From Candidatus Heimdallarchaeum endolithica (GTDB taxonomy: Archaea > Asgardarchaeota > Heimdallarchaeia > Heimdallarchaeales > Heimdallarchaeaceae), in the NCBI GenBank assembly GCA_021513715.1, contig CP084167.1:2880001-2944000 (forward strand): a stretch of DNA of 64,000 nt, read 5' to 3'. The notes under the pieces are model-generated. The model searched no databases, was not told where the DNA came from, and saw nothing but the letters and a program-made list of their open reading frames with translations. A program made the position numbers and the translations under genes. Positions 25,001 through 43,719 of this stretch are shown piece after piece. Numbering within the stretch: the stretch's first letter is position 1; every line of letters starts with the position of its first letter.

Positions 25001-28000
25001 ATTAAGGATACTCTTAAGATCTTTTTCTCTAACTGTGAAAAGATCAATAACTCGTAGAATGCGATTCTTTGCAAGAGTACGTTTAATAAATCGCGAAAGG
25101 TTTGAAATTCTGAAAATAGAGGAGTTACAAAGAGATAGAAAAACGTCGATATTTTCTTCAAATTCATCTGAAAATGATTTTATTTGATAGCTTAAACTAT
25201 AAAGATCTTGAACTGTTTCTTTATTTAGTTTTTGTAAAGTCATAAGATTTCTCTTTGATAGTAAGGTTAGAGATTCAAGTTTTACTCCTTTTTCTGCTAC
25301 TTCTTTCTGGATTTTTTTAACTGAAACATTTTCCTTTATTTTTATAATTTCTGCCTCTGGTATGTCTAAGATTAATGATATTGTGGTGATATCTTCTGTT
25401 AAGAAAGTAAGTATATCTCCAACTCCAGAATATACAAGCTTGAGCATTTGCTCTAGTTCTAAATCTAAGAAGAATACTGATGAGAGATACAATTTTGCTT
25501 CTTTGAATACATTCATATTCACTAAATAGGGATATGATTTTCTGATTTCAGACATTCTAGAAATGAAGTCTTGGATTGAATAAATCCCAAGTTCATGTAA
25601 CTTTTCAACATATTCATCTGTAATAGAGGGACAATTTTCTAAAGGAATAGCAAAACTAAGTCTTTTCTCTTTTAGTTCGTCTAATGAAAGCAAGTCAAAT
25701 ATGTGGAATTCATTATAAATTGGATTGTTTAGGATTTGAGACAATTGTCCTTTTTCAAAAAGAGACAAATCAATTACAGAGTGAATGTCGTGTAGTTCTA
25801 ACTTCTTTATTTCTTCAAAAGACAAGAAACTGAGGAAAGTTATTGAACCAGATAATAGCTCTTTGAATTCCTTATATTTTTCTTTTTTTAGAATACTGGA
25901 AGCTCCCATTCTTACTCCTGCATAGTATAAAGTTTCTATATCTGATATCCCTATTTCTTGTAACTTAGAAATTTCTGATTCAGTGATAAGAGATGAGGGC
26001 ATAATGGGGTGAGATCTAGTTCTATGTAATTCGACGATTTCACCGTAGGAAAGATTTTCCTTTATTTCATTAATTCTTTTTTGTGTTTCATTGGATATTT
26101 CAGAAAGTTTCTTGGTAGGGGTAGAATAAAAGTCTATTAATGTTGTAATTGAAGATCGACTGAGAGGGAGAGCGAGATTAGCATCAAGGTTTAGAGACGA
26201 AATAGGGATAGATAAATCGCCTATAAGTTTATCTAAACTATTTTCCTCTCTTAATTTGTTTTTTATTTCTAAAAGAGGAGAGCTCTCTTCAAATTCAAGT
26301 TCAAACAAGATACCTAAAGTTACAGTAGAGAAATCGTTCCTTGTTTCTTCATTCAAAAAGTTAAGAAAAGGGGTTATTCCAAGAGGAAGTTCAAAGACTG
26401 AACGAATAAGTGTAATATTACATTTTTCAAAAGCTAGTTGTCTTTCAAACTCACTGAGAGTTTTAATCAAATCCGTACTGGATATCACATCAAGTAGTGA
26501 TGACTCTTCTATGTCATCTAAAATAGAAGAAAAGAAGTCTTTATTGTATGCTGTTGCAGAAATAAAATCAAAGTAATGATAAGCTCTCATGTCAATTAAT
26601 TTGGATGAATAATCTGAAACTGTCCTAAACAATGTTCTGTCTGTTAAATCGTTATCTAATATGAAAATTAAATGGTAGAGATGTGAAATTTTGTTTTGAT
26701 TGAAAATAGTTAAAGAATAATCTGATATTTCCTGAAAAATTCGTAAAGGAAGTGATAATATCTTCTTTAGTGTGAAAACTTTTCGCCAGATAGATGATTT
26801 TCTATCAATGAAAACTTCATCAGGGCAGTAGAAAAGCTCTTGAATAGATTGAAATCCTTCATAACTATAAATTGTTTCTCTACTTAATGTTCTTTGTTCA
26901 TTTTTATCAAAAAGTTTAGTTTCATATGCATAGATTGCCCTTGTTTCATATTCTTCTCTTATTCTTTGAGAAGTTAAAATGTCTATTATTTCTTTAATTT
27001 CTTTTGTTGAAATGTTTAAGATGCTACTGAGTTTAACAGATGAAGTAGAAACAAAATCAACAATTGTTAATATATCAGCTTTTCTAAGTTCTTCTGTTTG
27101 TGAAAAAGAAAGTTTTGGTAAGAAATATACCGGTAAACTGAAAAAGTAGAATATTTCTCCAAGATCTAGACTCCTTTTAATATTGTCAAATCGTTCATCA
27201 GGAACTCCTGTTCTCTCCATTAAGACTTTGGATGATGTAAGTAGAAAACCTAGTAAGGTGTTTATTTTATTTTTCTTTAGAAGAGTAATTATATCTGGAT
27301 CTAACATATCTGACAAATGCTTAAAGCGTAGATTTAACACGTTTTTTAAGTTCTGTATTATTTCCCAAGGAATTGTGTTAATTGCCCATTTCTCTTGTTG
27401 AGTAGAAAAGTATAGGTCTTCAATGGTAAAAATATTGTTTGTTTCTAGAGTTTCTACTATAGAGGGTCTAAAGATGTCGAGTTCAGAAATGTCAGTACCT
27501 GTTTCACTAATTCGAATGTTTTTCTTGTATTTTTTAGCTTCTTCTAGATCAATTTTCAAGATTGAAGCAATTTTCTCATCACTAACAAGGAAAAAGTCTA
27601 TAATTCGTCTAATCCCAGTTTTTCTTAAAGCATTCAGCTGTTCATGAGATAAACTTGTTATTTCAACTTCGTCTACTTCTTTTTCTTGTTTCGTTTCCTC
27701 GTTTAATATTTTCTTCTTTACTGTTTTTTCCCAAGTGACAAGAGTCAAGGGAGAACGCAATAGCTTTTTGAATTTCTCAATTACTCCCCATTTTATAATA
27801 GTTGCACCAAAAGTATAAGGGTGTGTCAAGTAAAAGAGTTTGTCAATAGAATTGTATCCTATAACAAGTAAGGACAGTATTTCTTCTGGTGAAAAACGTT
27901 CTGAATTTTCGAAATCAAAAGAAATTGTAGATACATATTTTCCACTAGCTACTTTTTCATAAAATGGTTGTCCATCTCTATTTAAATCAAAATTGTTTAT

Positions 28001-31000
28001 TAGTTCATCAAAACTCTTCTTTGAAAAATTAAGGAGTGTTCTTAATTCATCAAAACTGTAATTAAAAAATTGATGTAAGGAGTATATTTTTTTTGATGCT
28101 AAAACCTCATAATCTTTAAGTTTCAAACCTTTTATACGAGTGATTGGGAGTTGCAAAAACTGATAGAAGTCAATTATTTCTTGAGATAGCAAAACTTTTT
28201 CAGAAAAATCATCTGAAACTTTAAGATTTTTACTATTTATGTTATCGTAGAATTCTAGTAAGACTTTCCTGTCTTTATTTTTAGAAATTTCTGTTTCAAT
28301 GAATGCAGGTGTTAGTTGAAGAAAATCTCTTATTGTATTTACATCCTTCGTTTTAAGCTTAAGAATTGCATCATTCAAAGATTTTGCTTTAGCTTTTGTT
28401 GGAGCTAATTTTGTTAAAAAGAGTATATCTTCATTCATGAATTCTTGAAAGTTATTCATTTTTGATAGAAACTCAGAGATAGGTGGGAGTTCTTCTTCAA
28501 TATAAAAGTAAAACAACTCTTGTATTGTTGTTTGTTGTTCATTGAATTGTTTGACCAATCTCGGGAAGTGCTTTTTTATAATTTTTAAATTTCCTTTGTA
28601 CAATTGTTTGTTTTTCTTAACCTTGTCAGCAGATATGCTTTGTTTTAAACGAATGATCTCTTCCTCGTTAAGGTTTAGTATTAGAGAGAGTTCTTTATTA
28701 CTCCATATAAGAAACCTCCCTATACAATTTACTCCTACCTCATTTAATACGTTAATTTTCTCATTTAATTCAGGAAAAGCAAAAATTAAAGGTGTTCGTA
28801 ATAATAAATAATCTGAAATGTATTGATTCTTAGTTTGTTCATCTTCAAATCCGAAATCTTCTGGGTTAGAGTATATTAAATCCTCTACTGTATATATTTC
28901 ATACTTGTTTGCTTTGCTTTTCAAAGATAGAAAATTGGGAATGGGTGTACCTATTTTTTTCTTTATTCTTGCAATCTCACTTTTTAATAACCCCATTTCG
29001 CGTAATCTTTTTGAAGGAGTAATCAAGAATGATGTAGAAGTAAATATTTTATTTTCCAATAATCTTTCTTCTGCCTTTTCATTAATTACTTTGAGGTGAG
29101 ATAAATCAAGATCTCTATTTGTTTCATTGAGATGAGTAAGTATGCGAAGTTTCGATTCTTCCAATAAACTATCCACAAAAATAGCTAATTCCTTTTTCAT
29201 TAAAGTTCTTAACTTTGCATTTGCATATTGGGCTAGAGTATCTATGTTCACAGACTTAAAAATGTCTAATATGCTCTTTTTTGTGCTATCATCTATAGTA
29301 GATATTAGTTTTAGTTTGCTTAGAGGAATTGATTTTTCAGTGTTAGCCAGAATAGTAAAGAATCTTGTGTAAATTGAACGCTCTAATTCTTTGATCTCTA
29401 GAAGGTCCTTAGTTGGTTTTTCAAGAAAATTTTTTATTGTCTCTATCTTTCGTCTATGGAAAGCATTTTTAGTATAACCGTCTATCCAGTCAGGTTTCAT
29501 TTTTGTTATATTAGTTTTTAGAAATTCAGGAAACTTCTGTGAAATATGCGAAAATACTTTCTTAATATAATCAATCAAGATTTCTGTTAAATCATTTTCA
29601 TATTTATAAGAAAAGGGCTCATTAAACTTGAAAATAAAATCTTCTAGTCCTCTAAACTTATTTGAAAAGTTGGGATAGGTTGTTTTTACATAGTTGAAGT
29701 CAGGATATAGAAATTCTTCTTTTAATTCTGAATAAGCAGACATGGTATCCAAATTGAACTTAAATTCTTGAATAAAACTTGATAAATCGACTGTTTCTTC
29801 TGAGTTTTGAGATTTCGTAATTTCACTAATTAACTTAAATTTGTTTCCCTCTATTAAACGCTCTACTAATCCTTCAACAAAACGTAATTGTGTAGCTTCT
29901 GTTGCTAAATAGTGATAACTATTTTGAATCCATCTTTGATATAAAGCTTCATTGAAACTACTACTTGTTCCTCTTGCAAACCTTTTATCAATTGTTTTGT
30001 TTGTTAATGCTTTCAGAGGAAGTTCAGGGCTCAACTTGGACCTGTCTAATTCATAAATTGTCCTTTGCTTTATTCTTGAAACTTCTTTTTTTGAAAGATT
30101 TAGAATTGTGGACAATTCTGAAATTGGTATAGAGAGAAACTTTCCTATTGTTAAAATATTATTTTTAGCACAATTGTTTTTATATTTGTCTGGACACCAC
30201 ACATTAAGTTCAAAAATCGGTGTTCCTAAAGGAACAAAATTCCTAATTTTCTTTTTTGCTCCATGGGCAAGAGCTGCTGCAACCTTATATTTCTCTTTAT
30301 TTATATTTGTATAAACTATTTTTTCATTCTCCAATATTCTAGCGAGATTATCGATTACAACAGGGGCTGATCTTACAAAACGAGATAATCTTGCATGTTC
30401 TCTTTTTCTTCTTTTTGCTCTACTTAGGAAAGTTTTTAGTCTTCTACCAAGTTGTTGCAAAGCTAATCTTATCTCTTCTTCAATCTCAGGAACAGTTGAA
30501 ATATACTCTTTACTAGTTTCAGGAAAAGGAATTTTTGTACTTACTATTGACACAGCAATAGCTAGCGGGTCTGATTGTCTTGTAAGTCCATATTCGCTCC
30601 AATTTAAAGAAGAAACTACTTTTGTAATAACATCATTTCCCGCACCAAAAATTAGAGGAATTCTATTTGCATATCTGTAAATTATTTTATTATCAACTGA
30701 TGTGCTTCCTTTTTGTTGGGCATATTTAGATACTCCACCTCCATAACCTATTGCAGCTTCTACAATAAAAGGGTGGCCAGAGTAAGCTTTTGGAGGACGA
30801 GAAATTGCTTCAACAAATTCTGGTTCAAGTTCTTTTTCTAAACCTTTTCTTAGTCTTGCTGCTCCTAAAGGAGAAAGAGCATCACCTTGTGGAGCGTCGA
30901 ATCTAAAGATCCTATCCCTCTTTCTTTTTATTTCTTTAGCTTCTTGGTATGCTTTAATGAATCCTTCATGAACTATTCTTCTAATTTCTTTTGAAGTAAG

Positions 31001-31945
31001 TTCGCTTGGTTTTTTGTTAGGATCAATTTCCAAAATTTGAAAGAATTCCTCAGCAACTTCCTTTCTCACTCCCATGAAGTCTTTTGATAAAAATTCGATT
31101 AGATCATTTGCAGAGGTTGCAGCTATTTTTGCTTTGAATTGAGTAATATCACAACCAAATGGGTGTAGTTGAATTACTTTTGGAGGATCTGGCATGTCAT
31201 CTACTACTTTTTGAAAAACTAGTTTTTCACTTGTTCCTTCTTCATCTCCAGGTAGTACTACAGTGAAACTAGCATAAGGGGTAATTATTGCTAATTGCTT
31301 AAAGTATTCTTTAATGCTGTTTTTTGCTAGATTCCAAGCTCCAGTGAAAGTTATACTTATCTCAGTTCCACTAGTATGTAAATATCCTTGGTCATCAGGA
31401 TAATATTCATGCTGCTCCATGATGACTGGTTCATTTTTTTCTAAATTAATCATTAAATGAACTTCATTTGTCATTTCTTCCATGAAGTATCTGCTTTTTA
31501 TTCTTGCAGGAAGATCAACTGAAGACATAGAGTGAATTAAACACATCTTGGCTCCTAAACCAAATCTTCCTCTAGTTTGAATCACTCCATATTTTGTCCC
31601 TGTTAATACTCGACCAAAAAGGTTCGGAATCTCGTGACCTGGAACACCTACACCATTATCTCTGCATGTTAACTGAAGAAAATCAAGATGTTTTTCTAAT
31701 TGTTTATATCTAGTAATATCTAATAATTCATTAATTTCAGAACTAGTTAGTTTTCTTAATTCAACATATATTTCTGGATTTACACCTAGTTTTTCAGCTG
31801 CATCTAAACCATTTTCAACTAACTCTCTAACTGATGTGAAAACAGCTCGCATTGAATTACCAAAACCTGCAATAGCCTTATTTTCATTAAAAAAAGCAGC
31901 TGCACTCATTTTTCGTGTTTTATTTTCTTCAGTCACAAAATTCAC
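19031..31945 (-). CDS. top6B: Giant DNA topoisomerase VI subunit B (GHKL + transducer + long HhH-like repeat array + basic tail), 4304 aa
   Basis: RELVENGLDA, DNGVG, TGTKY..QTRGRFGLG, RYANRIPL, PFPETSKE in aa 1-~545; uninterrupted frame; 10 bp upstream of top6A. Confidence 0.9.
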   Translation of the reverse strand: MNFVTEENKTRKMSAAAFFNENKAIAGFGNSMRAVFTSVRELVENGLDAAEKLGVNPEIYVELRKLTSSEINELLDITRYKQLEKHLDFLQLTCRDNGVGVPGHEIPNLFGRVLTGTKYGVIQTRGRFGLGAKMCLIHSMSSVDLPARIKSRYFMEEMTNEVHLMINLEKNEPVIMEQHEYYPDDQGYLHTSGTEISITFTGAWNLAKNSIKEYFKQLAIITPYASFTVVLPGDEEGTSEKLVFQKVVDDMPDPPKVIQLHPFGCDITQFKAKIAATSANDLIEFLSKDFMGVRKEVAEEFFQILEIDPNKKPSELTSKEIRRIVHEGFIKAYQEAKEIKRKRDRIFRFDAPQGDALSPLGAARLRKGLEKELEPEFVEAISRPPKAYSGHPFIVEAAIGYGGGVSKYAQQKGSTSVDNKIIYRYANRIPLIFGAGNDVITKVVSSLNWSEYGLTRQSDPLAIAVSIVSTKIPFPETSKEYISTVPEIEEEIRLALQQLGRRLKTFLSRAKRRKREHARLSRFVRSAPVVIDNLARILENEKIVYTNINKEKYKVAAALAHGAKKKIRNFVPLGTPIFELNVWCPDKYKNNCAKNNILTIGKFLSIPISELSTILNLSKKEVSRIKQRTIYELDRSKLSPELPLKALTNKTIDKRFARGTSSSFNEALYQRWIQNSYHYLATEATQLRFVEGLVERLIEGNKFKLISEITKSQNSEETVDLSSFIQEFKFNLDTMSAYSELKEEFLYPDFNYVKTTYPNFSNKFRGLEDFIFKFNEPFSYKYENDLTEILIDYIKKVFSHISQKFPEFLKTNITKMKPDWIDGYTKNAFHRRKIETIKNFLEKPTKDLLEIKELERSIYTRFFTILANTEKSIPLSKLKLISTIDDSTKKSILDIFKSVNIDTLAQYANAKLRTLMKKELAIFVDSLLEESKLRILTHLNETNRDLDLSHLKVINEKAEERLLENKIFTSTSFLITPSKRLREMGLLKSEIARIKKKIGTPIPNFLSLKSKANKYEIYTVEDLIYSNPEDFGFEDEQTKNQYISDYLLLRTPLIFAFPELNEKINVLNEVGVNCIGRFLIWSNKELSLILNLNEEEIIRLKQSISADKVKKNKQLYKGNLKIIKKHFPRLVKQFNEQQTTIQELFYFYIEEELPPISEFLSKMNNFQEFMNEDILFLTKLAPTKAKAKSLNDAILKLKTKDVNTIRDFLQLTPAFIETEISKNKDRKVLLEFYDNINSKNLKVSDDFSEKVLLSQEIIDFYQFLQLPITRIKGLKLKDYEVLASKKIYSLHQFFNYSFDELRTLLNFSKKSFDELINNFDLNRDGQPFYEKVASGKYVSTISFDFENSERFSPEEILSLLVIGYNSIDKLFYLTHPYTFGATIIKWGVIEKFKKLLRSPLTLVTWEKTVKKKILNEETKQEKEVDEVEITSLSHEQLNALRKTGIRRIIDFFLVSDEKIASILKIDLEEAKKYKKNIRISETGTDISELDIFRPSIVETLETNNIFTIEDLYFSTQQEKWAINTIPWEIIQNLKNVLNLRFKHLSDMLDPDIITLLKKNKINTLLGFLLTSSKVLMERTGVPDERFDNIKRSLDLGEIFYFFSLPVYFLPKLSFSQTEELRKADILTIVDFVSTSSVKLSSILNISTKEIKEIIDILTSQRIREEYETRAIYAYETKLFDKNEQRTLSRETIYSYEGFQSIQELFYCPDEVFIDRKSSIWRKVFTLKKILSLPLRIFQEISDYSLTIFNQNKISHLYHLIFILDNDLTDRTLFRTVSDYSSKLIDMRAYHYFDFISATAYNKDFFSSILDDIEESSLLDVISSTDLIKTLSEFERQLAFEKCNITLIRSVFELPLGITPFLNFLNEETRNDFSTVTLGILFELEFEESSPLLEIKNKLREENSLDKLIGDLSIPISSLNLDANLALPLSRSSITTLIDFYSTPTKKLSEISNETQKRINEIKENLSYGEIVELHRTRSHPIMPSSLITESEISKLQEIGISDIETLYYAGVRMGASSILKKEKYKEFKELLSGSITFLSFLSFEEIKKLELHDIHSVIDLSLFEKGQLSQILNNPIYNEFHIFDLLSLDELKEKRLSFAIPLENCPSITDEYVEKLHELGIYSIQDFISRMSEIRKSYPYLVNMNVFKEAKLYLSSVFFLDLELEQMLKLVYSGVGDILTFLTEDITTISLILDIPEAEIIKIKENVSVKKIQKEVAEKGVKLESLTLLSKRNLMTLQKLNKETVQDLYSLSYQIKSFSDEFEENIDVFLSLCNSSIFRISNLSRFIKRTLAKNRILRVIDLFTVREKDLKSILNFIPEELKEKRKGNISLSSGIPILEEDKELMSALTNFKFNLSKASFEDIFGLVPEYLLIFSESEKIEKASSIAKLEEFIYGLSLNIFSIPEISLDVKLDLWKNEVKNIIELLTLSSEEKRSIPSNARTEIIRFVKEFSKEKLVNLIPKDHLDILSNKNDKLNIKTSLDVINLLDLLPQPFVIGSQILFNNSESLTNKVKYPIIWLDKFSQIEQLEFLRKLIKENKKLILDLLLLPPEKINTEMAEYLVSSLSDFQIPKWAIKLHDVKFLTKEQKLALKKIKIDYLDQLLCLQDYSLEDKNLATIKKTLSLFGSTPTSFLNSLSLQQNSILLNNKINTILEFLTIPSASLSQLFGIEFKEIKTIKSQINKQDIISELKIYGIDLNLLPSLTEEEITGEGKLPLIKKREAKEGTSLKTIEKPEISTIKHLNENEIYSLIQLFYQDVNQIEISKEEKEKLIVNFPVLFTPIKTIERIFGISIINVESSLKNKNTYYDYLHIPIYLWESYLPELNKMIKENNSLFIRNLSSLQFSTLDIANLKLNKSLVQKLYNLGVFSIEYLYYFPEEFFSNLPDSYLEEIRNIRMKLCRNINNLPILTLSTIEYCYSKNIIHIIDVISSIQNLKDEMVDEILSSLSTLKNLQLEQFSPPLTSYEEKIMKLGYLSYQELLGDINLKDKNIFAEISPYLLANIRYLGLEEKLETNLKKGGIYTIADLLLIPYKTLAHKSRIKLDQILKLRSSIKIENIKNAIEHDKPNHLVDLPFLSEKEKDILSSYGFYSFSDLEENSIYSWLYDIKKINKIKTKIKQILDTSILFLGAINSLEFEEIETKYFDNNLFTVKDLIKNDKLINLGGYSTIISNLIKDKKKTLSLTLKTGDFLGTINSKDLFSKNIEIPDISNIIDLISVLYMNKQTLTKKGLEILNLLNSSISIVTDFTEKEIEKLNEHKIETLKDLLIKPISYSSFLTEKQLEKVNRVLSTLNLNTIRKLRDKRVQLSNIMLFDSETKKELLKYYTVVDDLIYDLSKKHSRLRSKLRNNVLKILNKSIYLISFPQLPLENWLKLLSKVSTIQEMLLLSKSDLAKIIDTKNSEVDTFLSKITISRISNPPALKTNIVLQDFDIAELRENSIKNYLDLFENTDVFSNLSPSLRTKIELLQKLSSRYFDEKLPNLSFQQLVFFNMHHDSLKVDSQVSKRLLDIYSFIFSKPTKLEEKLNLPEEDEQKIQHTLESLLLLEKYDKKKFDNITSSFPENITLHFNEYLQFLNRHIILLVGESFENKKKYKQYGNLTIGDLILKPKYQLNQIIDDNKLIRQIRNLSLETLRTLASKLTPIPETILDKTELDVLSQGHIFSIEEAYIFNLVSKSKTSKRWKITEKLRLRIEQKIYSLPLVFESKETFKLLLKNNIKTVYDLLLLNKSTDITVLKNFLSQIPFHNLDSLTAQSNSKLIEFVNDKEIINELNKNDINSLGELIALFEEKNISDLSMKVKDVLSCFRASLALFIRQKNILSQLSKRGYEQIYDLFFLQNIDDLHIKFTEKQHAEFTELLHSLNMTKVKEQLELNSYRIKDLGLFSDTEKSILENGGFSHIIHLSVSDKRIKEQTELTIKQISTLKELLSYPIYSFYALMQDKPNSIFKLYHKQKYSLWDVFNTRINELTEITNITERQLKNYFATLTPQSLKIAKKGKTQIVKNTPFMSSETILKLKEIGIYSFEELIFADNRVKKKDTFKNENVQKLQKLIEEPIEKLDVKQGIRNKLKSLGINTIGEFIVYPTSQLEGKLEMTYNDIKKIKQSIPFVKNKTSTTAKKTTTAKKTTTKKTTATAKKPSTTAKKTTATAKKPSTTAKKTTATAKKTTTKKTTTAKKTTATAKKPSTTAKKTTAAKKTTTAKKPSTTAKKKPSTTAKKTTTAKKTTTKKTTTAKKTTTKKTTATAKKTTTKKTTATAKKTTTKKTTATAKKPSTTAKKTTAKRTKQTTLDEITADKKIESKKRSTK
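19105..19612 (-). repeat. Coding tandem repeat giving a (T/A)2-4-KK / KKPSTTAKK low-complexity tail
   Basis: Shuffled units ttctttgctgttgttgt, gtacttggttttttt and gctgttgct over ~0.5 kb. Confidence 0.95.
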
Positions 31946-32083: not shown

Positions 32084-35014
32084 TTAATTTTCCTTACGGA
32101 ACAATTGTTGCTTAACTGGTTCTGCATTAATTGTTAGAGAAGATACAATTATACCTAGTGTTAGAATGAATAAGGCAGCAAAAGCTCCTCCGGTTCTATA
32201 AGAATCTGCTCTTCCTATTATTGAGAGGAAATCATTCTCGATATGTTTGGCAAGGTTTTCTGTAGAATAGAGCATATCTTCAAGCCAGAATAAGTTTGCC
32301 ATATCTGCAGTAAGTTTAGGATAAGTTTGATGCCATGTTCTATACTTATACTGAACATCTTCAGTGTTTTCTACTGCATCCTCATCTAAAAATGGATAAT
32401 ATTCTACGTATTGACCTGCATAGGTATTATATTGTACTCTATCTCTTCGTTCGAGAATTGTACCAGTTGTTGGGTCAGTGAAAATTTGTTGGAAGTGGAA
32501 TTCATCACGTATAGAACCAGGAAATGTGTGAGTAATATAAATATCATCATTCTTCCAATCTGTACCATAAATTTCGTTCCATCTTCCTACATGAACAAAA
32601 CTTTCATTTAGATAATCTGCATACTCTTGCCAATATAAGTCATATTGATCTACTTGTAGATAAGGTTGTTGTGTGTCTGCATAGTAAATGTATGCATCTC
32701 TTCCATACATGATTGTTTTATCTCTAGCAGAATCAAAGATAAAGGGACGGAAGAAGTATTCAACCCATCTTTGTGTAAATCCTCTTACTGTATTTGGAGG
32801 TAAAGCATTTAATGCATAAGTCTCACTGAATGGATCAAATTCCACTGTTTTCATTGGCCAATTATTTAATTGGACGAAAGAAGCTTTATCCCAAACTTCA
32901 ACAAATGTTCTTAATTCATCTCTATGTAGCACATCACTAAATGAACCTGAAGAGTAAGTTACATGTATTAAACCTTTAGAACCATCAGCTAAGTAAATGT
33001 TATTGCCAGAAGCGTAAACATCAAATGCTTCTCCATCGCTGTCGTAAGTTGCTAAACTGGATAAGGAATTGACGTTAGAAGCATCTACTACAATTAACCC
33101 ATTTTCTCCTGCAGTTAGGTATAATAAATCATTGTCTTCGTATATATTAAAGAAACCATCAGAAGTACCAAAGTCATATGTTTCAATTTGTGTTAAAGTG
33201 TTTCCACTAATTGAATAGACTACAAGTCCTAAAGTAGCATCAAGAACATATAATGTTGAACCATCCAACAGTAATTGTGTTGCTCCAGGAAGAGAGACGT
33301 TTACTAATGAATCTAATGTTGAAGCATCAAAAACTTCTATTCCTCGACCTTGTTCAACAGCATAAACTTTTGTTCCATCAGTATTAATTGCAATAACAGG
33401 CGAATCAGTTTCTTTAAGGGTATTCAAGGAAATATCTCCACCATTTGTTGTTAGTTTAGCTAATCCATATTGTCCCATAGCAACGAATAATGAGGATTTT
33501 GTAGGATTATATTCAAGATCTAAAGCGTTTACATTTCCTCCGTTAGTCCAAACATTAATTTGTTCTATCTCTGAAAGATCAGCTAAATTTAATGAAACTA
33601 ATCCTTTTTCACCAGCTGCTACATATCCAAAATCGCCATATAAACTAGTTTCAAAAGCAATATCCTTGAAAGAGTAACCTTGTAATCTGTATCCTCCAAT
33701 TCCTAAAAATAAGGGGCTGGAAGTATTTACTATTCTGAAACCTCTGTTTCCTTCGATCACATAAGCGAAATCTCCATTCATCTCAACCTTGTAACTTTGT
33801 GATTTTTCAAAGGTGGGGATATTGCCAATTGCAATTATTTCATCTACTCTTGTAATATTTTCTCTGCCTGTTTTTACAGCGTATAATAAGTCTGTAGAAG
33901 GATCAAAGGTTTCGAATGATTGATTAACCAAGAAAGGATATTTTCTTCCTCCAAGGAGAGGATCTTCAATCCCTGTAACCCACTCTGTTGCTGTTCTTTC
34001 GCAAATATAAGATATTTTTCTGTCGTATAACCAAGTTAATGCAGGAGTACCTGTAAGATATCTAATGTATGAAGCGAAAGATTGAGCTTGTTTTAGTTCT
34101 TCTGGTGTATCAATATCATAAATTTCTGCTAACTTTTGTGTAACGTTAACAGTGAGAATTGAGGAGTCATAGCTTAAACCTTGAACTAAATCAAGGAAGT
34201 ATTTCATAGACCCAGCTTCTCCAGTGAATAGAGAATAGTCATGACCATCTGCAGTTAATGCATTAAAGAGAATTTTGTAGGCTGTCTCACTATCAAAATT
34301 AAGATCTGTGTGATCAGGACGTGAATTAATCCACATGTGAGGGCTATACTTAATGCTGTAAATTAGGTCATTATCTTGTGCATAATCTTTATTTAGTACA
34401 ATTTTAGCAATTTCGCTGTTATTGTATCCTAATTCTTCTAATTCACTTCGAATCATAAAACTTGCAACATAAGCTTGTAAACCATACTCTGAACCATTAC
34501 CGAAATTCTTTACATAATATGGCCAGAGGTAGTTATAATTAACAATTTTCTCATTACCTGTTAATGTTGAAAGCGTTTTGTTTAAAGTGTATTGCTTCCG
34601 TTCAGTGTAAACAACATAATCATTTTCTTCACTATAATCAACTATAAATTTCTTCATTTCTAAGTCAAATACTAGTTTTCCTGGAATTCCTATGTAAGTA
34701 ACTGGCGTATTTTTGTACAGGTATGCATTTCTGTCACTTATGTTGTAAAATTCTATATAGGTATGAGCGTAATAATTACTATCATCAGAGTATTTACCAA
34801 CATACATCCAATCAGAGTAATTGTCGCTTCCTCCTTCGTAAGGATCAAGGTCGTCTTCTGTAATCATACCATAGTTACTTAGTTTCTCTTCTATTTGATT
34901 ATTGATTCTGATAGTTTGAATTGGTAACATTACGCCAACTGCGATAGCTGATCCAGAAGTTAAAATTAAAATAAATATTCCTAACATTATACGGAATTTT
35001 TTCTGCATAGTCAT
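32084..35014 (-). CDS. CD36/scavenger-receptor-class-B-like membrane protein with inserted LVIVD-type beta-propeller
   Basis: N- and C-terminal TM helices; CD36-like blocks GSDNYSDW, EFYNIS, RTATEWVTGIEDPLL, VKTGRENIT, DPTTGTILERRDRVQYN, FWLED; internal AYVxxGxxGLxxxD repeats. Confidence 0.72.
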   Translation of the reverse strand: MTMQKKFRIMLGIFILILTSGSAIAVGVMLPIQTIRINNQIEEKLSNYGMITEDDLDPYEGGSDNYSDWMYVGKYSDDSNYYAHTYIEFYNISDRNAYLYKNTPVTYIGIPGKLVFDLEMKKFIVDYSEENDYVVYTERKQYTLNKTLSTLTGNEKIVNYNYLWPYYVKNFGNGSEYGLQAYVASFMIRSELEELGYNNSEIAKIVLNKDYAQDNDLIYSIKYSPHMWINSRPDHTDLNFDSETAYKILFNALTADGHDYSLFTGEAGSMKYFLDLVQGLSYDSSILTVNVTQKLAEIYDIDTPEELKQAQSFASYIRYLTGTPALTWLYDRKISYICERTATEWVTGIEDPLLGGRKYPFLVNQSFETFDPSTDLLYAVKTGRENITRVDEIIAIGNIPTFEKSQSYKVEMNGDFAYVIEGNRGFRIVNTSSPLFLGIGGYRLQGYSFKDIAFETSLYGDFGYVAAGEKGLVSLNLADLSEIEQINVWTNGGNVNALDLEYNPTKSSLFVAMGQYGLAKLTTNGGDISLNTLKETDSPVIAINTDGTKVYAVEQGRGIEVFDASTLDSLVNVSLPGATQLLLDGSTLYVLDATLGLVVYSISGNTLTQIETYDFGTSDGFFNIYEDNDLLYLTAGENGLIVVDASNVNSLSSLATYDSDGEAFDVYASGNNIYLADGSKGLIHVTYSSGSFSDVLHRDELRTFVEVWDKASFVQLNNWPMKTVEFDPFSETYALNALPPNTVRGFTQRWVEYFFRPFIFDSARDKTIMYGRDAYIYYADTQQPYLQVDQYDLYWQEYADYLNESFVHVGRWNEIYGTDWKNDDIYITHTFPGSIRDEFHFQQIFTDPTTGTILERRDRVQYNTYAGQYVEYYPFLDEDAVENTEDVQYKYRTWHQTYPKLTADMANLFWLEDMLYSTENLAKHIENDFLSIIGRADSYRTGGAFAALFILTLGIIVSSLTINAEPVKQQLFRKEN

Positions 35015-35252: not shown

Positions 35253-36518
35253 TTATTCTTCTTTTACTTCGTCTTCATTTTCTATTGTAACATTCTCTTC
35301 TATTAGATAATGTTCCTTCTCAAACAGAGTGTCATATGACGATAAAAAGGAGGTACTAACAAGTTCTCCATTAGAATCATACTCTTTTATAATTGCTTTG
35401 TTTAATATTTTGAATGAATCAAGAATTTCTTGGGGAATAGTAATGAAAGAAAATATTCCTCTAATGACTGTTCCCCTTCTTCTATTGCTATTTATAGCAA
35501 AAAAAACATCTTTATTTGAGTATTTTTGTCTAAAAATCTTGTAGTTTGATACAGATAAACCATCGTTAGTTGTTTGGATACAGATAAAACCTCTTAAAGG
35601 TGGTTTATCAATTGGAATGTTTGTTGCTAAATTCTCAACTTTTAATAGATTTGAAAAATCATTAATTTGTTCGTAGATGTCGTAGGAGACTAGAGAACAA
35701 AGACCTTTTGCATCTTGAAAAACATGTTGAAAATCTGATAAGTCGTAGGTATAAAAGTCATTCTTTGAGATAGAAGATATCATAATATCAACTATTACAT
35801 TCATTACTCTATCTCTAAGTTTTGTTTTCAATTCAAGATAACCACTAGACGGATTATTTTCAACTAATTTATTATGGTCTAATAAGATGAAAGGAATTAA
35901 GACATTTTCTAAATTTATCAAATAAGAAATAAAACCTAATAAAGAAATTTTCTCGCTTAAATTTTGCCCTTCTATTGGTTTTTCAAGGACAACTATTGGA
36001 GTTTTCCCTTTTTCTTTAATAATAGGTAGGAGTTCCATTAACATTCCTAATAGAAAACTATCATTTCCAGTGAAAATAAAAACAATTGAAGCATCTTCTA
36101 CAGTATTTACGATCTTCTGTGAAATACTAGATTGATTTTCATCAAACCACTTTTTACCCAAAAGAAAAGTAGAATTTATAATATCTCTGTTAGGTAAACG
36201 GATAAAATGATTCTTGTTTTCATATTTATTCAATGTTTCTTCATTAGCAAATAATAAGGAATTGCTTTTTTTTATTCTCTTAACAAGAAAAGAATAGAAT
36301 TCACAACCTTCTCCCAAAAACAAAAATGCATAATTTTTTAGTTTCTCTTCCCCTTCAAAAAATAGAGTATCAGATAGTTCAGAACCAAAAAAAGGATTTT
36401 CATCATTTTTGTTATCTACAATAATTCTTTGAAATTCAAATTTGTACAATGGGTTGAACTTTTGTTTTCTTGTCCCTAAACTTGATTTTTTTCTTTTGAA
36501 TATTTTTTTCAAACTCAT
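35253..36518 (-). CDS. Degenerate tubulin/FtsZ-fold protein lacking the GGGTGS loop
   Basis: FtsZ-like order of elements (FLFLGEG, GKKWFDEN..I, DASIVFIF, VVLEKP..EG, ILLDHNKL, YDLSDF..VF); colinear with 39520..40659. Confidence 0.6.
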   Translation of the reverse strand: MSLKKIFKRKKSSLGTRKQKFNPLYKFEFQRIIVDNKNDENPFFGSELSDTLFFEGEEKLKNYAFLFLGEGCEFYSFLVKRIKKSNSLLFANEETLNKYENKNHFIRLPNRDIINSTFLLGKKWFDENQSSISQKIVNTVEDASIVFIFTGNDSFLLGMLMELLPIIKEKGKTPIVVLEKPIEGQNLSEKISLLGFISYLINLENVLIPFILLDHNKLVENNPSSGYLELKTKLRDRVMNVIVDIMISSISKNDFYTYDLSDFQHVFQDAKGLCSLVSYDIYEQINDFSNLLKVENLATNIPIDKPPLRGFICIQTTNDGLSVSNYKIFRQKYSNKDVFFAINSNRRRGTVIRGIFSFITIPQEILDSFKILNKAIIKEYDSNGELVSTSFLSSYDTLFEKEHYLIEENVTIENEDEVKEE

Positions 36519-36587
36519 TTTGCAACACTTAACGAAACTTCATTTTATATTTTATTTATTGCTTTTTATTTCTATCGAAATGCAATG

Positions 36588-38000
36588 TTAATGTTTTCCT
36601 GCAAGTACTTCATTTGTATTAAATACTTGAATTGTGTTAGTTTTTCTTGGAATACCTAAATAACTTCCCCCTACTAATACAACTATATCATCATCCTTCA
36701 AATGTCCTTCGTTAATTAGACTTGAAATACAAGTGTAAACAAGTTGGTCGTAATCAGTTTCATATGTATGAAAAATAGGTTTCACTCCCCAATAAAGTTG
36801 CACTCTCCTCAATGTCCTTTTTTCTGGTGTAGAGGCAAATATAGGTAAACGCAATCTATATTTTGAAACCATCTGAGAACTATACCCTGTGCGTGTAAGT
36901 GCAATTATAGCTTTTGCAGAGAGGTTTTGAGCAATATCAACAGCAGCTTTTCCAATTGACTCTTCTATATTTTTTGCTTTACATTTTGGAATAAAAATAA
37001 GTTCGCTTTTTTCTGCTTCTCGAATTATTTGGTCCATTACTCTAATTACATTAACAGGATGGATACCTGTGGCTGTTTCTGCAGACAACATTACAGCGTC
37101 AGCTCCATCAAAAACAGCGTGAGCAACGTCACTAGCTTCAGCACGAGTTGGAATAGGTTCAATTGTCATTGATTCCAACATCTGTGTAGCAACAATTACA
37201 GGTTTACCAAGTTGCATTCCCATTTGAATGTATTGCTTTTGTAAAACAGGTACTTTTTCAGGACCAATTTCAATTCCTAAATCACCTCTAGCAACCATTA
37301 GTCCATCACAATTTTCCATGATGGATTTAATGTTTTTTACAGCATCAATATGCTCAATCTTTGCAATTATTGGGATATATTGTGATGTTGATGACTTTAT
37401 TATCTCCTTTATCTTTTTGATGTCTTCAACATCTCTTACGAAACTTATGAATAGATAATCTGCTTCTAGTTCACAAGCCTTTTCAATGTCTATTATGTCT
37501 TTTTTAGTTGGAACATGTAAAGTTAAATTTGAATCTGGAACGTTGACTCCTTTCCTTGTTGATATTATCCCTCCATCTCTAACAACACATTTAATTAAAT
37601 TTCCATCTATCTCCAAAACTTCTAGTTTTACTAATCCATCATTAATAAAAATAGGTGAACCTATTTTTACTTCTTTGTATAGATCTTTATAATTAACTGA
37701 AAAGTAGTTTTTTGTACTAATTATCGATTCGTCGTTTGTTATTGTCACCTTTTCACCAATTTCTAGTGAAACTGACTCTTTGAACTTTCCAATACGTATC
37801 TTAGGACCTGCTATGTCAATAGCTATTGCAATATTAGGGCAATTTTCTCTAATTCTGTTAAAAACTGTTTCATGCTCTTGATGTGTTCCATGGGAAAAGT
37901 TCAATCTAGCAATATTCATTCCTGTTTTTTCCATTTTTTTCAGCATTTCCACAGAATCAGATGATGGACCAATAGTACAAACAATTTTAGTCATTCTCAA
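36588..38000 (-). CDS. pyk: Pyruvate kinase
   Basis: TKIVCTIGP, RLNFSHG, GPKIR, IAKIE, MVARGDLG, ATQMLESM, MLSAET. Confidence 0.97.
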   Translation of the reverse strand: MRMTKIVCTIGPSSDSVEMLKKMEKTGMNIARLNFSHGTHQEHETVFNRIRENCPNIAIAIDIAGPKIRIGKFKESVSLEIGEKVTITNDESIISTKNYFSVNYKDLYKEVKIGSPIFINDGLVKLEVLEIDGNLIKCVVRDGGIISTRKGVNVPDSNLTLHVPTKKDIIDIEKACELEADYLFISFVRDVEDIKKIKEIIKSSTSQYIPIIAKIEHIDAVKNIKSIMENCDGLMVARGDLGIEIGPEKVPVLQKQYIQMGMQLGKPVIVATQMLESMTIEPIPTRAEASDVAHAVFDGADAVMLSAETATGIHPVNVIRVMDQIIREAEKSELIFIPKCKAKNIEESIGKAAVDIAQNLSAKAIIALTRTGYSSQMVSKYRLRLPIFASTPEKRTLRRVQLYWGVKPIFHTYETDYDQLVYTCISSLINEGHLKDDDIVVLVGGSYLGIPRKTNTIQVFNTNEVLAGKH

Positions 38001-38198
38001 TGTTAATCGTCTAAGTATTCGTTTTTCTACTTAAAAGATTATGTGTTTTTGGAATTGAAGAAAACTCTTTCAATTTTAATCAATAGTTCTACATTATGTT
38101 TTTTTAGCTAAAGAACAAATAAGTTTTACAGGAATTCCTTATTAGTTATTGTTCTTCTTGCGAAAGTTTAAAAATGTGAATTTACTCTTTTCATTGAA

Positions 38199-39509
38199 AT
38201 GGAAGAAAGTTCAAAAGTTCCTGTTAGTGGGATAAAGGCAAGTTTAGTATATCCTGAATCTAAAATAAAACCAGTTTTTAATTTTGAAAATATGATAGTT
38301 GAACACTATAAACGATTTCCACGAACTGCAGCATTGATTGAAAATCCAAAATATGCAAAAGCCCTAATGAACCCTCTGAAATCTTTCTATCTTGTCCCTA
38401 TTGCTATTTTCAAGGTCAAATTTAATACTATTCTCTCAATGAAATTTTGGAATTACATGTCTTTGTGGTTATACATCCTTATTGCTTCTATTCCAAATTC
38501 TATCTCTATGTATTTAACATTCAAAAGCAATAAAATTTTAGGTGATATTACTTTTTCAGTTATCATACCTATATTAGTTTCCTCTCTAGTTGCCCTTTGG
38601 TACCTTAAATTTACACATGATGGTTTCTTTGGACTAATTATAGAGAAGAAAGTTGAGTGGTTGGAAAAACCTGTAAAAGAATACTATGATAAATATTATG
38701 ATAAAAAATTTAGTTTAAACGTTGTTTTAGTCACTTTGAGCGTCTTGACCTCATTAGGTGTTGGAATTCCTGTATTAATTTATGCTTCTAGCCAAGGTTT
38801 ACAATCTGCAATTATATTTGGAATTATTGGAATGATTTGCAATCTGCTAGTCTTTTATGTTTTCTATTTGTCTTTACAATATACTATATTAAACACTAAA
38901 ATTTATTCAAAGGTATTAAACACTATAAAAAATAGAATAAATCTCTATCTCAACGAGTATGGAACTTTGCTGAACAGTGAAAATTATGAGATCATTTGGG
39001 CTTTAGGAGACACTCCTGGAAGATCAATACGACAACTTGAGAATATACCTATAGCTGGAGTAATCTCTGCATTAATAGTAACAATTGCCATGTTAATAGG
39101 GACTATTAACCAAGCAGTTCTTGGACTAGTAAAAGGAGTTATGCCAACAGTGAATATAATTAATTCACAAATGAGTCTCAATGCAATAATTGCAACAATC
39201 TCTCTAGTTATTGCAATTGTGATGGTGTTAATCGTTATTCTTCCATTGTACATCTTTAGTAGTAAAATGAAGAAATTTAAAGTTAAAGCGCTGATAGAAC
39301 TGGACAATTACATTTTTGCGAATGTGATGGAATTTGAACAACGTTATTCTGAGCTTGCAAAACAAGAAACAGTAACTATATTTGCTCTCAGAGAGTATAT
39401 CTCTGGTATGAGAACTATTCCAATTTCTGCGGCGAAGATTATTAAAAGTTTAACAGCTGTTGCAGTATGGTTCGTAAATGTAAGAAAAATAATAAAAGCA
39501 TTTGGTTGA
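38199..39509 (+). CDS. Multi-pass membrane protein of unknown function
   Basis: About 6 hydrophobic segments; 10 bp upstream of the tubulin/FtsZ-like gene. Confidence 0.75.
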   Translation: MEESSKVPVSGIKASLVYPESKIKPVFNFENMIVEHYKRFPRTAALIENPKYAKALMNPLKSFYLVPIAIFKVKFNTILSMKFWNYMSLWLYILIASIPNSISMYLTFKSNKILGDITFSVIIPILVSSLVALWYLKFTHDGFFGLIIEKKVEWLEKPVKEYYDKYYDKKFSLNVVLVTLSVLTSLGVGIPVLIYASSQGLQSAIIFGIIGMICNLLVFYVFYLSLQYTILNTKIYSKVLNTIKNRINLYLNEYGTLLNSENYEIIWALGDTPGRSIRQLENIPIAGVISALIVTIAMLIGTINQAVLGLVKGVMPTVNIINSQMSLNAIIATISLVIAIVMVLIVILPLYIFSSKMKKFKVKALIELDNYIFANVMEFEQRYSELAKQETVTIFALREYISGMRTIPISAAKIIKSLTAVAVWFVNVRKIIKAFG

Positions 39510-39519
39510 GTGAGGAAAA

Positions 39520-40659
39520 ATGTCGTTCTTAAAGAAACTTAGAAAAAAATCAATAGATATTGCAGTAATCGCTGTTGGTGATGCAGCCTGTACAATAGGA
39601 GCTAAATTTATTCAAAATTTAAAAGAAAATAAGATTAACGTGAAGTCTTTAGCAATAAATACAAAAAACAATTTTGAGTCCAAAATTTCTGACCCTTATA
39701 GTGACAAGTTTTGGTTTGCTGAACAATATTCTTCTACAAATCGTGATTTAGAATTGGCAAAAAAACTTTTTGAAGAAAGAAAAGAAGCTCTAACTGATAA
39801 ATTAAAAAATGTTGTTTTTTATCGCATAGATGACAAAAAACGAGAAGAAAAACTTGCTTTACATCTTATAATAGCTAGTGGAGGAGGAACTGGTTCAGCA
39901 GGTTCAATGATAGTAAGTAAAATAATTAAAGATATAACAGGTGAATCTCCGACAATAATCTTCATTGTTCCTGAAAAACATGAACCTTCAGTTGTTCAAT
40001 ATAATACAGCTACAGCTTTGTTCTATCTGGGATTTGATAGTCTAGGACCTAATTGTCCTACTATCCTATTTGATAATGAGAAACTAATCTCAGTTGATAA
40101 AACATTAAATATTAAGGATGCACTAGAATACTGTAATAACTATTTGGCTAATACACTCTCTACTACTATTTTAGCAGCTCTACAAGAATCTTCTCATGAA
40201 GAATTTAATGCGGGTTTAAATGATTTTTTCAAATCTTTTAGCTCTGAAGCAAAAGGAATAGGGGTCATTATTTCTGTAGATAAAACTTTTGAATCTTTAG
40301 AAAAAGCTCAAAATATTAGGTTTTCTGATATATTCTTTAAAGAATTAGAACTAACATCCAGTTTGACTGCGGATATCACAAAGGCAAGACTGGGTTTTCT
40401 ATCCATTATTGCTCCTCATTCCTATCAAACAACGTTTGAAACAAAAAAAATTGTAAAAAGATTTGAAAAAGGATCAATTAAGGTTTCATTAACATCATTA
40501 GAAGAGCCTATTCTTTTAATACGTGGAGTAATAACAGGGTTGCACCCTGATTTTATTGAGAGATTTTGGGATATTTTTGAACGTGCTAGGGATTCCAGAA
40601 AAGAGGTATTAATTCAAGAAGAGCAAATAAGAAACATGAAATTAGTTTTTTCCAACTAA
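39520..40659 (+). CDS. Divergent tubulin/FtsZ/CetZ-family GTPase
   Basis: AVGDAA, AINT, signature GGGTGSAG, VPxxxE, LFDNEKL, T7-like NAGLND. Confidence 0.85.
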   Translation: MSFLKKLRKKSIDIAVIAVGDAACTIGAKFIQNLKENKINVKSLAINTKNNFESKISDPYSDKFWFAEQYSSTNRDLELAKKLFEERKEALTDKLKNVVFYRIDDKKREEKLALHLIIASGGGTGSAGSMIVSKIIKDITGESPTIIFIVPEKHEPSVVQYNTATALFYLGFDSLGPNCPTILFDNEKLISVDKTLNIKDALEYCNNYLANTLSTTILAALQESSHEEFNAGLNDFFKSFSSEAKGIGVIISVDKTFESLEKAQNIRFSDIFFKELELTSSLTADITKARLGFLSIIAPHSYQTTFETKKIVKRFEKGSIKVSLTSLEEPILLIRGVITGLHPDFIERFWDIFERARDSRKEVLIQEEQIRNMKLVFSN

Positions 40660-42765: not shown

Positions 42766-43719
42766 TTGTTTAACATGAGTGAAACAGAACCTTGTCCTTA
42801 TTGTTTTAGAGAAATTAAGAAAGGGGTAAATTTTTGTAAATATTGTGGCTCCGCAATAAAACATTGTCCAAGTTGTAATTCTCCAAATAAAGCTGAAAGT
42901 CTTTTTTGTAGTTCTTGTGGAAAGGATATTAGGGAAATCACTGTACAAAGTAGAAATCTAGAACCTCCAATCTCTCCTTCACATGTTAGCCAAACTGGAA
43001 GTGAAAAAATAATTATTTGGCCTCCTCCAGGTCAATTTTTTCCAACACAACCAAAATATAGACCTTATCAAACACCTGAAGAGCAATTGTTTGGGACAAG
43101 AGATAATCAAGAGCAATTTAAACCTAAGATTGTTTATCCATATTCAAAAGTAGGAATACTAGGATTCTTAAGAGGACCAATTTCAACATCAAAAGTTTTT
43201 ACTTCTGTAGTTGAAGCATTTGCCTATGGTCTAGCTCTTATAGCCACTGGAGTACTGATTATAAGTATAGGTTTTCTCCTTTTCAAAACTTTAATTTTGC
43301 CAATAATAGGTTTATTATGGGGAGGAACATTAATTCTTTCAGCTCCATTTTTTGGTATGTATTTTGTTTCTTCAAAGTGGTTATATAAGGCATTTAAAAT
43401 TAAAAAACCTGTAAGTGATATGACTATATTGTGGAACTATCTCTTTAGTATAATTTTCTTTTCGTTTATTTCGCTAATTTTAATACCTTTGCTAGCAATG
43501 AATACTTTGTTTGCCACAATTTTTGGAATTATTGCCATGATCTTAATCTTTGCTGTATTGATCGTGATTCCGTTGAAAGCTTTTCTCATAGATTTAGCAT
43601 ACGTTAAAGCAGCTGTAGTGGAAAGAGATAGCCAAAAAGAAAAAGAAGAAACTTTAGAAGAAAATGAACCTCAAAAAGAAAAAGAAGATATTGAGGAAAC
43701 AAGAAAAGAAAATAGATGA
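42766..43719 (+). CDS. Double zinc-ribbon membrane protein
   Basis: Four CxxC pairs, Pro/Gln linker, ~4 TM helices. Confidence 0.75.
   Translation: MFNMSETEPCPYCFREIKKGVNFCKYCGSAIKHCPSCNSPNKAESLFCSSCGKDIREITVQSRNLEPPISPSHVSQTGSEKIIIWPPPGQFFPTQPKYRPYQTPEEQLFGTRDNQEQFKPKIVYPYSKVGILGFLRGPISTSKVFTSVVEAFAYGLALIATGVLIISIGFLLFKTLILPIIGLLWGGTLILSAPFFGMYFVSSKWLYKAFKIKKPVSDMTILWNYLFSIIFFSFISLILIPLLAMNTLFATIFGIIAMILIFAVLIVIPLKAFLIDLAYVKAAVVERDSQKEKEETLEENEPQKEKEDIEETRKENR

Follow-up and report, generated by a model that had tools for sequence, protein, structure and literature searches.

Among described members of the tubulin/FtsZ superfamily, CetZ is a euryarchaeal family of cell-shape proteins. Asgard archaea attract interest for what they may reveal about how the eukaryotic cytoskeleton and membrane dynamics arose, and work so far has dealt with their rare true tubulins and with FtsZ. 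True tubulins are found in about 1% of Asgard genomes (PMC13394414). In tubulin pairs of the alpha/beta type both chains bind guanosine triphosphate (GTP), and the asymmetry between them consists of one T7 residue, Glu versus Lys (PMC13371889, PMC13394414). A 'CetZ-like group in Asgardarchaeota', Asg.Tub, has been described by Santana-Molina et al. (2023, PMC9871819) and includes OLS26264.1, PWI48967.1, KXH77455.1 and OLS30664.1, with members of 454–459 amino acids (aa) in LC-3, B3-JM-08 and Thor genomes (PMC9871819). Operons in which FtsZl1 (Pfam Tubulin_2) occurs with vWA genes were reported by Makarova and Koonin (2010, PMC2875224). Here we analyze a locus of Candidatus Heimdallarchaeum endolithica that encodes two divergent tubulin/FtsZ-superfamily proteins, A and B, and a membrane protein, MEM (Table 1). 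It lies in a window of 64,000 nucleotides, the whole stretch of DNA analyzed (contig CP084167.1, positions 2,880,001 to 2,944,000), within a 3.33-Mb single-contig genome. Among public records, Candidatus Heimdallarchaeum aukensis PM71 (CP084166.1) is its closest relative, with an A protein that is 94% identical.

Our analysis makes it probable, if well short of certain, that A, B and MEM form a membrane-associated system of the tubulin superfamily, in which A would be a GTP-dependent polymer, MEM an anchor or effector, and B a nucleotide-free, non-catalytic partner with the tubulin fold. No description of such a module was found in the literature searched, and OLS32748.1, an A orthologue, is mentioned in none of the papers searched. 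A and B had been singled out in an earlier note on the window; both open reading frames exist as claimed there, on opposite strands and 3001 bases apart. The observation made in that note is confirmed, and its interpretation is supported in part.

A three-gene module specific to one order of Heimdallarchaeia

We searched 400 whole Asgard genomes with the B-family profile, which detects A as well. Families are labeled f1 for the Heimdallarchaeaceae, to which the window belongs, f2 to f4 for sister families in the same order, and f5, f7 and f25 for other Asgard families. A and B are both present, and linked, in 45 of the 46 genomes of the order (f1, 29/30; f2, 1/1; f3, 3/3; f4, 12/12), so that the absence of co-occurrence that would have told against the partnership proposed in the earlier note is not seen. 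A profile for MEM finds exactly the same genomes, with a single copy that is always directly upstream of A. Outside the order, the sole strong match is one 4-kb contig of an f5 genome with 8% contamination (G052), and its copy nests within f4 in the tree described below; two f25 genomes give weak matches (E 1e-11 to 1e-13) that are placed near FtsZ. The three genes thus make up a single conserved module that is specific to this order of Heimdallarchaeia.

Gene order was read from 20 annotated loci. The arrangement B-MEM-A, on one strand and with abutting or overlapping ends, occurs at 12 loci of f3 and f4 and on the stray G052 contig, and two further contigs (one f2, one f3) stop before MEM or A. 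An operon of abutting genes, B-MEM-A, is taken as the ancestral layout of the module. B is inverted in f1: at least 15 genomes, from 5 genera, have it at a distance of 1.4–4.7 kb from MEM-A, divergent and mostly in head-to-head orientation. MEM and A have stayed together in the window, where 10 bases that include a Shine-Dalgarno-like GAGG separate the end of MEM from the start of A.

Profile comparisons indicate that A and B are true paralogues of the tubulin/FtsZ superfamily, anciently duplicated and much diverged. A direct BLASTP comparison is weak (22% identity, E 1e-3). Alignment of the A-family and B-family profiles with hhalign extends over 328 columns and covers both domains (probability 99.9, E 4e-32), in line with the earlier description of the two as divergent paralogues from a non-canonical clade. 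A matches Pfam Tubulin marginally, with 33.6 bits against a cut-off of 33, and B has no match among Pfam and NCBIfam families. Neither is FtsZ proper: on the FtsZ equivalog NCBIfam TIGR00065, A falls far below the cut-off (20.3 versus 295.2 bits) and B is not matched at all, and a separate canonical FtsZ in the genome scores 153 bits on Pfam Tubulin. The 55 homologues of A, at 53–63% identity, all come from the Heimdall group, and a search seeded with the A alignment returned Heimdall-type records only, one of them labeled Thorarchaeota. For B, a word-indexed search found two relatives and an exhaustive HMMER search of 1.84 billion representatives found 29. Source records assign close homologues to the Heimdallarchaeaceae. 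More distant B relatives retain a glycine-rich T1 loop and a GGTG-type T4 loop, and 9 of 26 B-family rows match Pfam Tubulin.

The AlphaFold (AF2) model of B is confident (predicted local distance difference test, pLDDT, 88.6; predicted template modeling score, pTM, 0.89), and B is predicted from it to carry the full two-domain tubulin/FtsZ fold on which the earlier proposal hinged, with a Rossmann-like GTPase domain, the core helix H7 and a C-terminal domain. Foldseek matches the model to TubZ (6e-15), and VIA Z scores are 27.5 for TubZ over 330 residues, 27.3 and 26.9 for CetZ, 23–24 for FtsZ and 22.7 for tubulin. Only the N-domain of the A model is confident; its best structural matches are CetZ, FtsZ and TubZ.

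In a maximum-likelihood tree of 61 sequences (a quick run, containing no CetZ sequences), A-type and B-type proteins are each monophyletic, with Shimodaira-Hasegawa-like approximate likelihood-ratio test (SH-aLRT) values of 93 and 92. The two clades are sisters in a joint clade (99), and their family topologies run parallel, which argues for one duplication in the ancestor of the order, after which both copies were inherited vertically together. With pyruvate kinase as the control, pairwise distances of A, B and MEM remain correlated (partial Mantel r 0.32, 0.51 and 0.35; p 0.006, 0.0005 and 0.01), a result that we treat as weak support because the distances are saturated.

Nucleotide loops and T7 residues of A and B

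Motif states were tabulated for 18 A and 21 B proteins of f1, 11 of each from f4, and 2 A and 3 B proteins from f3. A GTPase was scored as active by the T4 signature GGGTG[ST]G, a T1 glycine loop and the T6 Asn. A has the T4 signature and the T6 Asn intact; in f1 its T4, T5 and T6 loops are all intact and its T1 loop has the form G.GNAGC. T1, T4 and T6 Asn are replaced in 21/21 B proteins of the Heimdallarchaeaceae, so that the loss of the glycine-rich loop reported earlier for the window's B is shared by all the B proteins tabulated for its family. A script also recovered the four motifs that had been quoted from A and B (Table 1). The replacement T4 region of f1 B is itself conserved (Asn..Phe..Gly), which argues that the pocket has been rewritten rather than allowed to decay. 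The sister families differ. In f4, B keeps T1, T4 and T6 and has a T7 of the form Asp..Glu, and A has a mostly intact T4 with an atypical T1. In f3, T4 and T6 are lost from A (n = 2), and B retains a partial T4 and the T7 Glu and has lost the first T7 acid.

The T7 loop was central to the earlier note, in which A was said to have an altered T7 and B to keep both acids. The first acid of A is indeed variable throughout the order, being Asp in 11, Gly in 4 and other residues in 3 of the f1 proteins and variable also in f4; the second, at the catalytic position, is retained as Asp in 17/18 and 11/11, respectively. Variability at the first position is just as great where the pocket of the sister-family B is intact, and the altered T7 of A is therefore old and order-wide, not a response to a dead B. 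In f1 B, the first acid is Asp in 18/21 proteins. At the second position 17/21 have Asn and 2 have Ser or Thr; Asp is confined to the window and its congener, so that the claim for B holds in the window's genus and fails in most of the family.

These patterns bear on the model put forward in the earlier note, an obligate A-B heterodimer or alternating filament of the alpha/beta-tubulin kind, in which the T7 acids of B activate GTP bound to A and B acts as a built-in GTPase-activating protein (GAP) or cap. In the window, B does have both T7 acids and A an intact T4 pocket, and trans-activation could still operate in this genus. The linkage of the two genes across the order also suits a heterodimer, as does the state of f3, where A has lost T4 while B holds a partial T4 and the T7 Glu: either partner can degenerate, as would be expected of a pair. 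Across f1, however, the catalytic-position residue that B would contribute is Asn in most proteins, which weakens the proposed GAP or capping role, and A retains its own catalytic-position Asp even though that residue would face a dead B pocket. Pocket and T7 acid are kept or lost jointly within one protein, in f1 B and, with n = 2 only, in f3 A. This is the opposite of an alpha/beta-like division of labor, in which the losses would fall across the pair. The motif states are better explained by homotypic catalytic contacts (A on A and, in the past, B on B) than by a trans-activating filament in which A and B alternate. B has moreover evolved far faster than A (74% versus 94% identity to Candidatus H. 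aukensis), unlike the chains of a tight obligate dimer. We regard the obligate heterodimer as unlikely.

The membrane protein and the N-terminal peptides

The earlier note placed A and B in a membrane-tethered system and looked to their N-terminal peptides for the tether. MEM, the third conserved component, had been missed, and it is most likely the tether. Besides its hydrophobic segments MEM has several invariant motifs. At most 2 of 16 members share any Pfam match, PDB profiles give none, the NCBIfam search gives only a weak SLATT_4 match (18 bits against 55), and the ESM Atlas search gives unnamed clusters only.

The N-termini of A and B are strongly basic, with charges of +4 to +9 per 20 residues, as had been noticed. 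They had also been called amphipathic, and that description has been dropped: the best hydrophobic moment over 11 residues is no higher than in shuffled peptides (mean z −0.6 to +0.4). We retain 'basic peptide' and infer that these segments may bind acidic lipid or MEM.

Proposed mechanism

Under the mechanism that we favor, a single duplication in the ancestor of the order would have given rise to A and B within a TubZ/CetZ-like branch of the superfamily. In the Heimdallarchaeaceae, A would be the sole nucleotide-competent member and would form GTP-dependent longitudinal A-A contacts, with its own T7 Asp as activator. B is without functional nucleotide loops at T1, T4 and T6, and most genomes also lack its catalytic T7 acid; purifying selection would have kept it for a non-catalytic role, whether as adaptor, nucleator, cap or lateral partner. 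MEM would anchor the system in the membrane or act as its effector, with the basic peptides at the N-termini of A and B engaging MEM or acidic lipids. The role of such an assembly may be membrane shaping or positioning rather than core division.

That B still has a function is indicated by its confident fold together with two further observations: most f1 genomes with a B gene have it as an intact reading frame, and dN/dS, the ratio of nonsynonymous to synonymous substitution rates, is 0.16–0.37 in five pairs, a sign of purifying selection. Canonical FtsZ and SepF are also present in the genome, which is why we take the module to be an extra system and not the division ring. SepF is found in 27/30 f1 genomes and also in f7; it was not detected in f2–f6 with the Pfam model, from which it may be too diverged there. 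Genomes of the window's order have one canonical FtsZ each, and those of f7 have two. We also considered the module as a replacement for FtsZ2 and SepF, an idea left unsupported by the distributions of SepF and FtsZ, which form no clean complementary pattern.

Several observations weigh against the mechanism just described. The T1 loop of the window's A holds one of three canonical glycines, a weakening that makes its GTP affinity uncertain. The C-terminal domain of A is modeled poorly (pLDDT <50, residues 244–346); the model of that domain was not used, and the fold there rests on the profile alignment to B. The hydrophobic moments of the N-terminal peptides, as noted above, do not exceed those of shuffles. 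Conserved order of genes within one order of archaea may partly reflect shared ancestry. Finally, f1 B stands in a separate transcription unit with the gene for a CD36-like protein and evolves four times faster than A, which is as compatible with a partnership that has loosened or changed as with a close one.

The last point leads to a second alternative, in which B of the Heimdallarchaeaceae has left A and now serves as a nucleotide-free scaffold for the CD36-like protein. B is inverted away from MEM-A in this family, and the CD36-like gene follows it on the same strand in 23/23 loci with enough sequence; in f2–f4, no CD36-like gene was seen within 5–8 kb of the module. The rearrangement coincides with loss of the nucleotide loops and with a stem branch for B that is the longest in the tree (1.52, versus 0.9 for A). 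Comparison with Candidatus H. aukensis shows how far B stands out in rate: its 74% identity is set against 94% for A, 91% for MEM, 94% for pyruvate kinase, 90% for the CD36-like protein and 92% for an FAD oxidase. On the other hand, B and MEM-A have remained within a few kilobases of each other, mostly head to head, so that shared regulation is possible, and adjacency by itself is no proof of contact. We consider a complete change of partner quite improbable. It and the favored mechanism are not mutually exclusive. A combination, in which B was recruited in the Heimdallarchaeaceae to couple a GTP-driven filament of A on MEM to a lipid-handling CD36-like protein, is a speculative idea to which we give little credence at present.

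The profile and structural matches of the B family (4ei7, E 7e-14, the best solved relative; Z 27.5, tied for best) would suit a system that partitions DNA in the manner of TubZ for a plasmid, a virus or an integrated element. We reject this reading as extremely improbable on genomic context, given a fixed chromosomal site near pyruvate kinase in 45/46 genomes, a tree that parallels the families, no DNA-binding adaptor gene alongside and a membrane protein as constant neighbor.

Features of the locus and neighboring genes

Coordinates of the module, its motifs and its neighbors are collected in Table 1. We treat the CD36-like protein as context and as a possible second partner of B. Most genomes of the order have pyruvate kinase next to the module, with no fixed orientation; in some f1 genomes it lies between B and MEM and in others not. 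It is probably a case of bystander synteny.

Table 1. Positions of the module, its sequence motifs and flanking genes in the window
Feature	Residues	Coordinates	Strand	Description
A		39520..40659	+	379 aa; divergent tubulin/FtsZ-superfamily GTPase (predicted); T4, T5 and T6 loops intact
B		35253..36518	-	421 aa; nucleotide-dead paralogue (predicted pseudo-GTPase); complete tubulin/FtsZ fold; 60-residue N-terminal extension
MEM		38199..39509	+	436 aa; multi-pass membrane protein with about 6–7 hydrophobic segments (hydropathy)
A, T4 tubulin signature GGGTGSAG	121-128	39880..39903	+	Located by motif script
A, T7 loop NAGLND	230-235	40207..40224	+	First acid replaced by Gly; second, catalytic-position Asp retained
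B, rewritten T4 region FTGNDSFLLG	149-158	36045..36074	-	Family pattern Asn..Phe..Gly; conserved, not glycine-rich
B, T7 loop TYDLSD	257-262	35733..35750	-	Both acids present in the window's genus only
A, N-terminal basic-hydrophobic peptide		39520..39549	+	Nearly invariant within the family (alignment)
B, N-terminal basic peptide		36486..36518	-	Net charge +9 over the first 20 residues
CD36-like membrane protein with propeller		32084..35014	-	Next gene downstream of B, on B's strand; matches Pfam CD36 and LVIVD weakly
Pyruvate kinase		36588..38000	-	Between B and MEM; syntenic neighbor in most genomes of the order

Some other features of the window and the genome were recorded in passing. The product of the CD36-like gene contains LVIVD/propeller repeats. 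At 19031-31945 (-) of the window, a 4304-aa open reading frame has a topoisomerase VI-B-like start, a very long repeat-rich arm and a Thr/Ala/Lys-rich tail, and the protein encoded at 42766-43719 (+) joins an N-terminal double zinc-ribbon domain to a multi-pass membrane region and ends in an acidic tail. Elsewhere in the genome, a third, much larger protein of 695 aa (~1097778-1099865 of the genome contig, -) begins with a basic peptide and shows T1 and T4 motifs like those of tubulins; it scores only 22 bits on Pfam Tubulin and matches neither the A nor the B profile.

Comparison with known systems

The module, which almost every genome of a heimdallarchaeial order carries, pairs an active with a dead tubulin-fold protein and has a membrane protein of its own. 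It may represent a third cytoskeletal system in the cells of Heimdallarchaeia. The families that carry it form a natural series for the origin of pseudo-GTPase subunits: in f4 both proteins keep their GTP-binding loops, in f3 A has lost T4 and T6, and in f1 B is dead. A, B and MEM are each of a size suited to expression, assays and structural work. If B does couple a filament to the CD36-like protein, the result would be a cytoskeleton-linked device for membrane or lipid trafficking in close relatives of eukaryotes.

FtsZl1 resembles the module as a predicted membrane-remodeling system that combines a divergent tubulin-like GTPase with membrane-associated partners. The resemblance does not extend far into sequence, as only 4 of 26 B-family rows give even a weak match to Tubulin_2 (PF13809; best E 0.006). 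The annotated module loci contain no gene for vWA, for OmpA or for a second GTPase.

Asg.Tub is alike in being made up of Asgard-specific, non-canonical members of the tubulin superfamily with uncharacterized neighbors. We take its members to be the paralogue type sampled in f5, an assignment made by lineage and length alone, and in our tree the f5-type paralogue forms a clade separate from A and B. The A orthologue OLS32748.1 is absent from the accession files of PMC9871819. An identity of A or B with Asg.Tub was accordingly rejected on the published accession lists and the tree, without direct sequence comparison.

TubZ/RepX (type III partition GTPases; 4ei7, 2xka and 3v3t, from Bacillus plasmids and a clostridial phage) is the solved relative nearest to the B family by profile and the joint best structural match, in which the C-terminal extension is included. 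Mobile elements encode TubZ alongside its adaptor TubR and a centromere, whereas the module is chromosomal, order-wide and vertically inherited and has a membrane protein as its neighbor. B differs from TubZ also in having no nucleotide site.

CetZ (3zid, 4b45 and 4b46) provides the best solved relatives of the A family by profile, CetZ1 and CetZ2, though only at E 6e-5 (for 4b46) and 1e-4. Foldseek matches the A model to 3zid, and by structural Z score the B model ties CetZ with TubZ. One A orthologue (OLS32748.1, AB_125) has been annotated automatically as 'CetZ'. CetZ and the module can be likened as archaeal, envelope-associated systems outside division, but the sequence similarity between them is marginal, and we know of no CetZ that forms an active/dead pair with a dedicated membrane protein.

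A further parallel is with the alpha/beta-type pairs BtubA/B, AtubA/B and Heim-alpha/beta, which like A and B consist of two co-inherited paralogues with one fold and unequal catalytic equipment. True Asgard tubulins were located by BLAST with OdinTubulin. A genome from a sister family (G037; C52:9085-11038) holds an adjacent true tubulin pair, with 190–197 bits on Pfam Tubulin, besides an A/B/MEM module, so that the two systems can coexist. A and B were rejected as true Asgard tubulins of the AtubAB or Heim-alpha/beta kind; they are different proteins. The genes of the alpha/beta-type pairs are adjacent and score strongly as tubulins, whereas A and B have the MEM gene between them and Pfam scores that are marginal or nil. 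In A and B, one chain is without a nucleotide site, the T7 residues are Asp in A and Asn or Asp in B, and the asymmetry varies from one sister family to the next.

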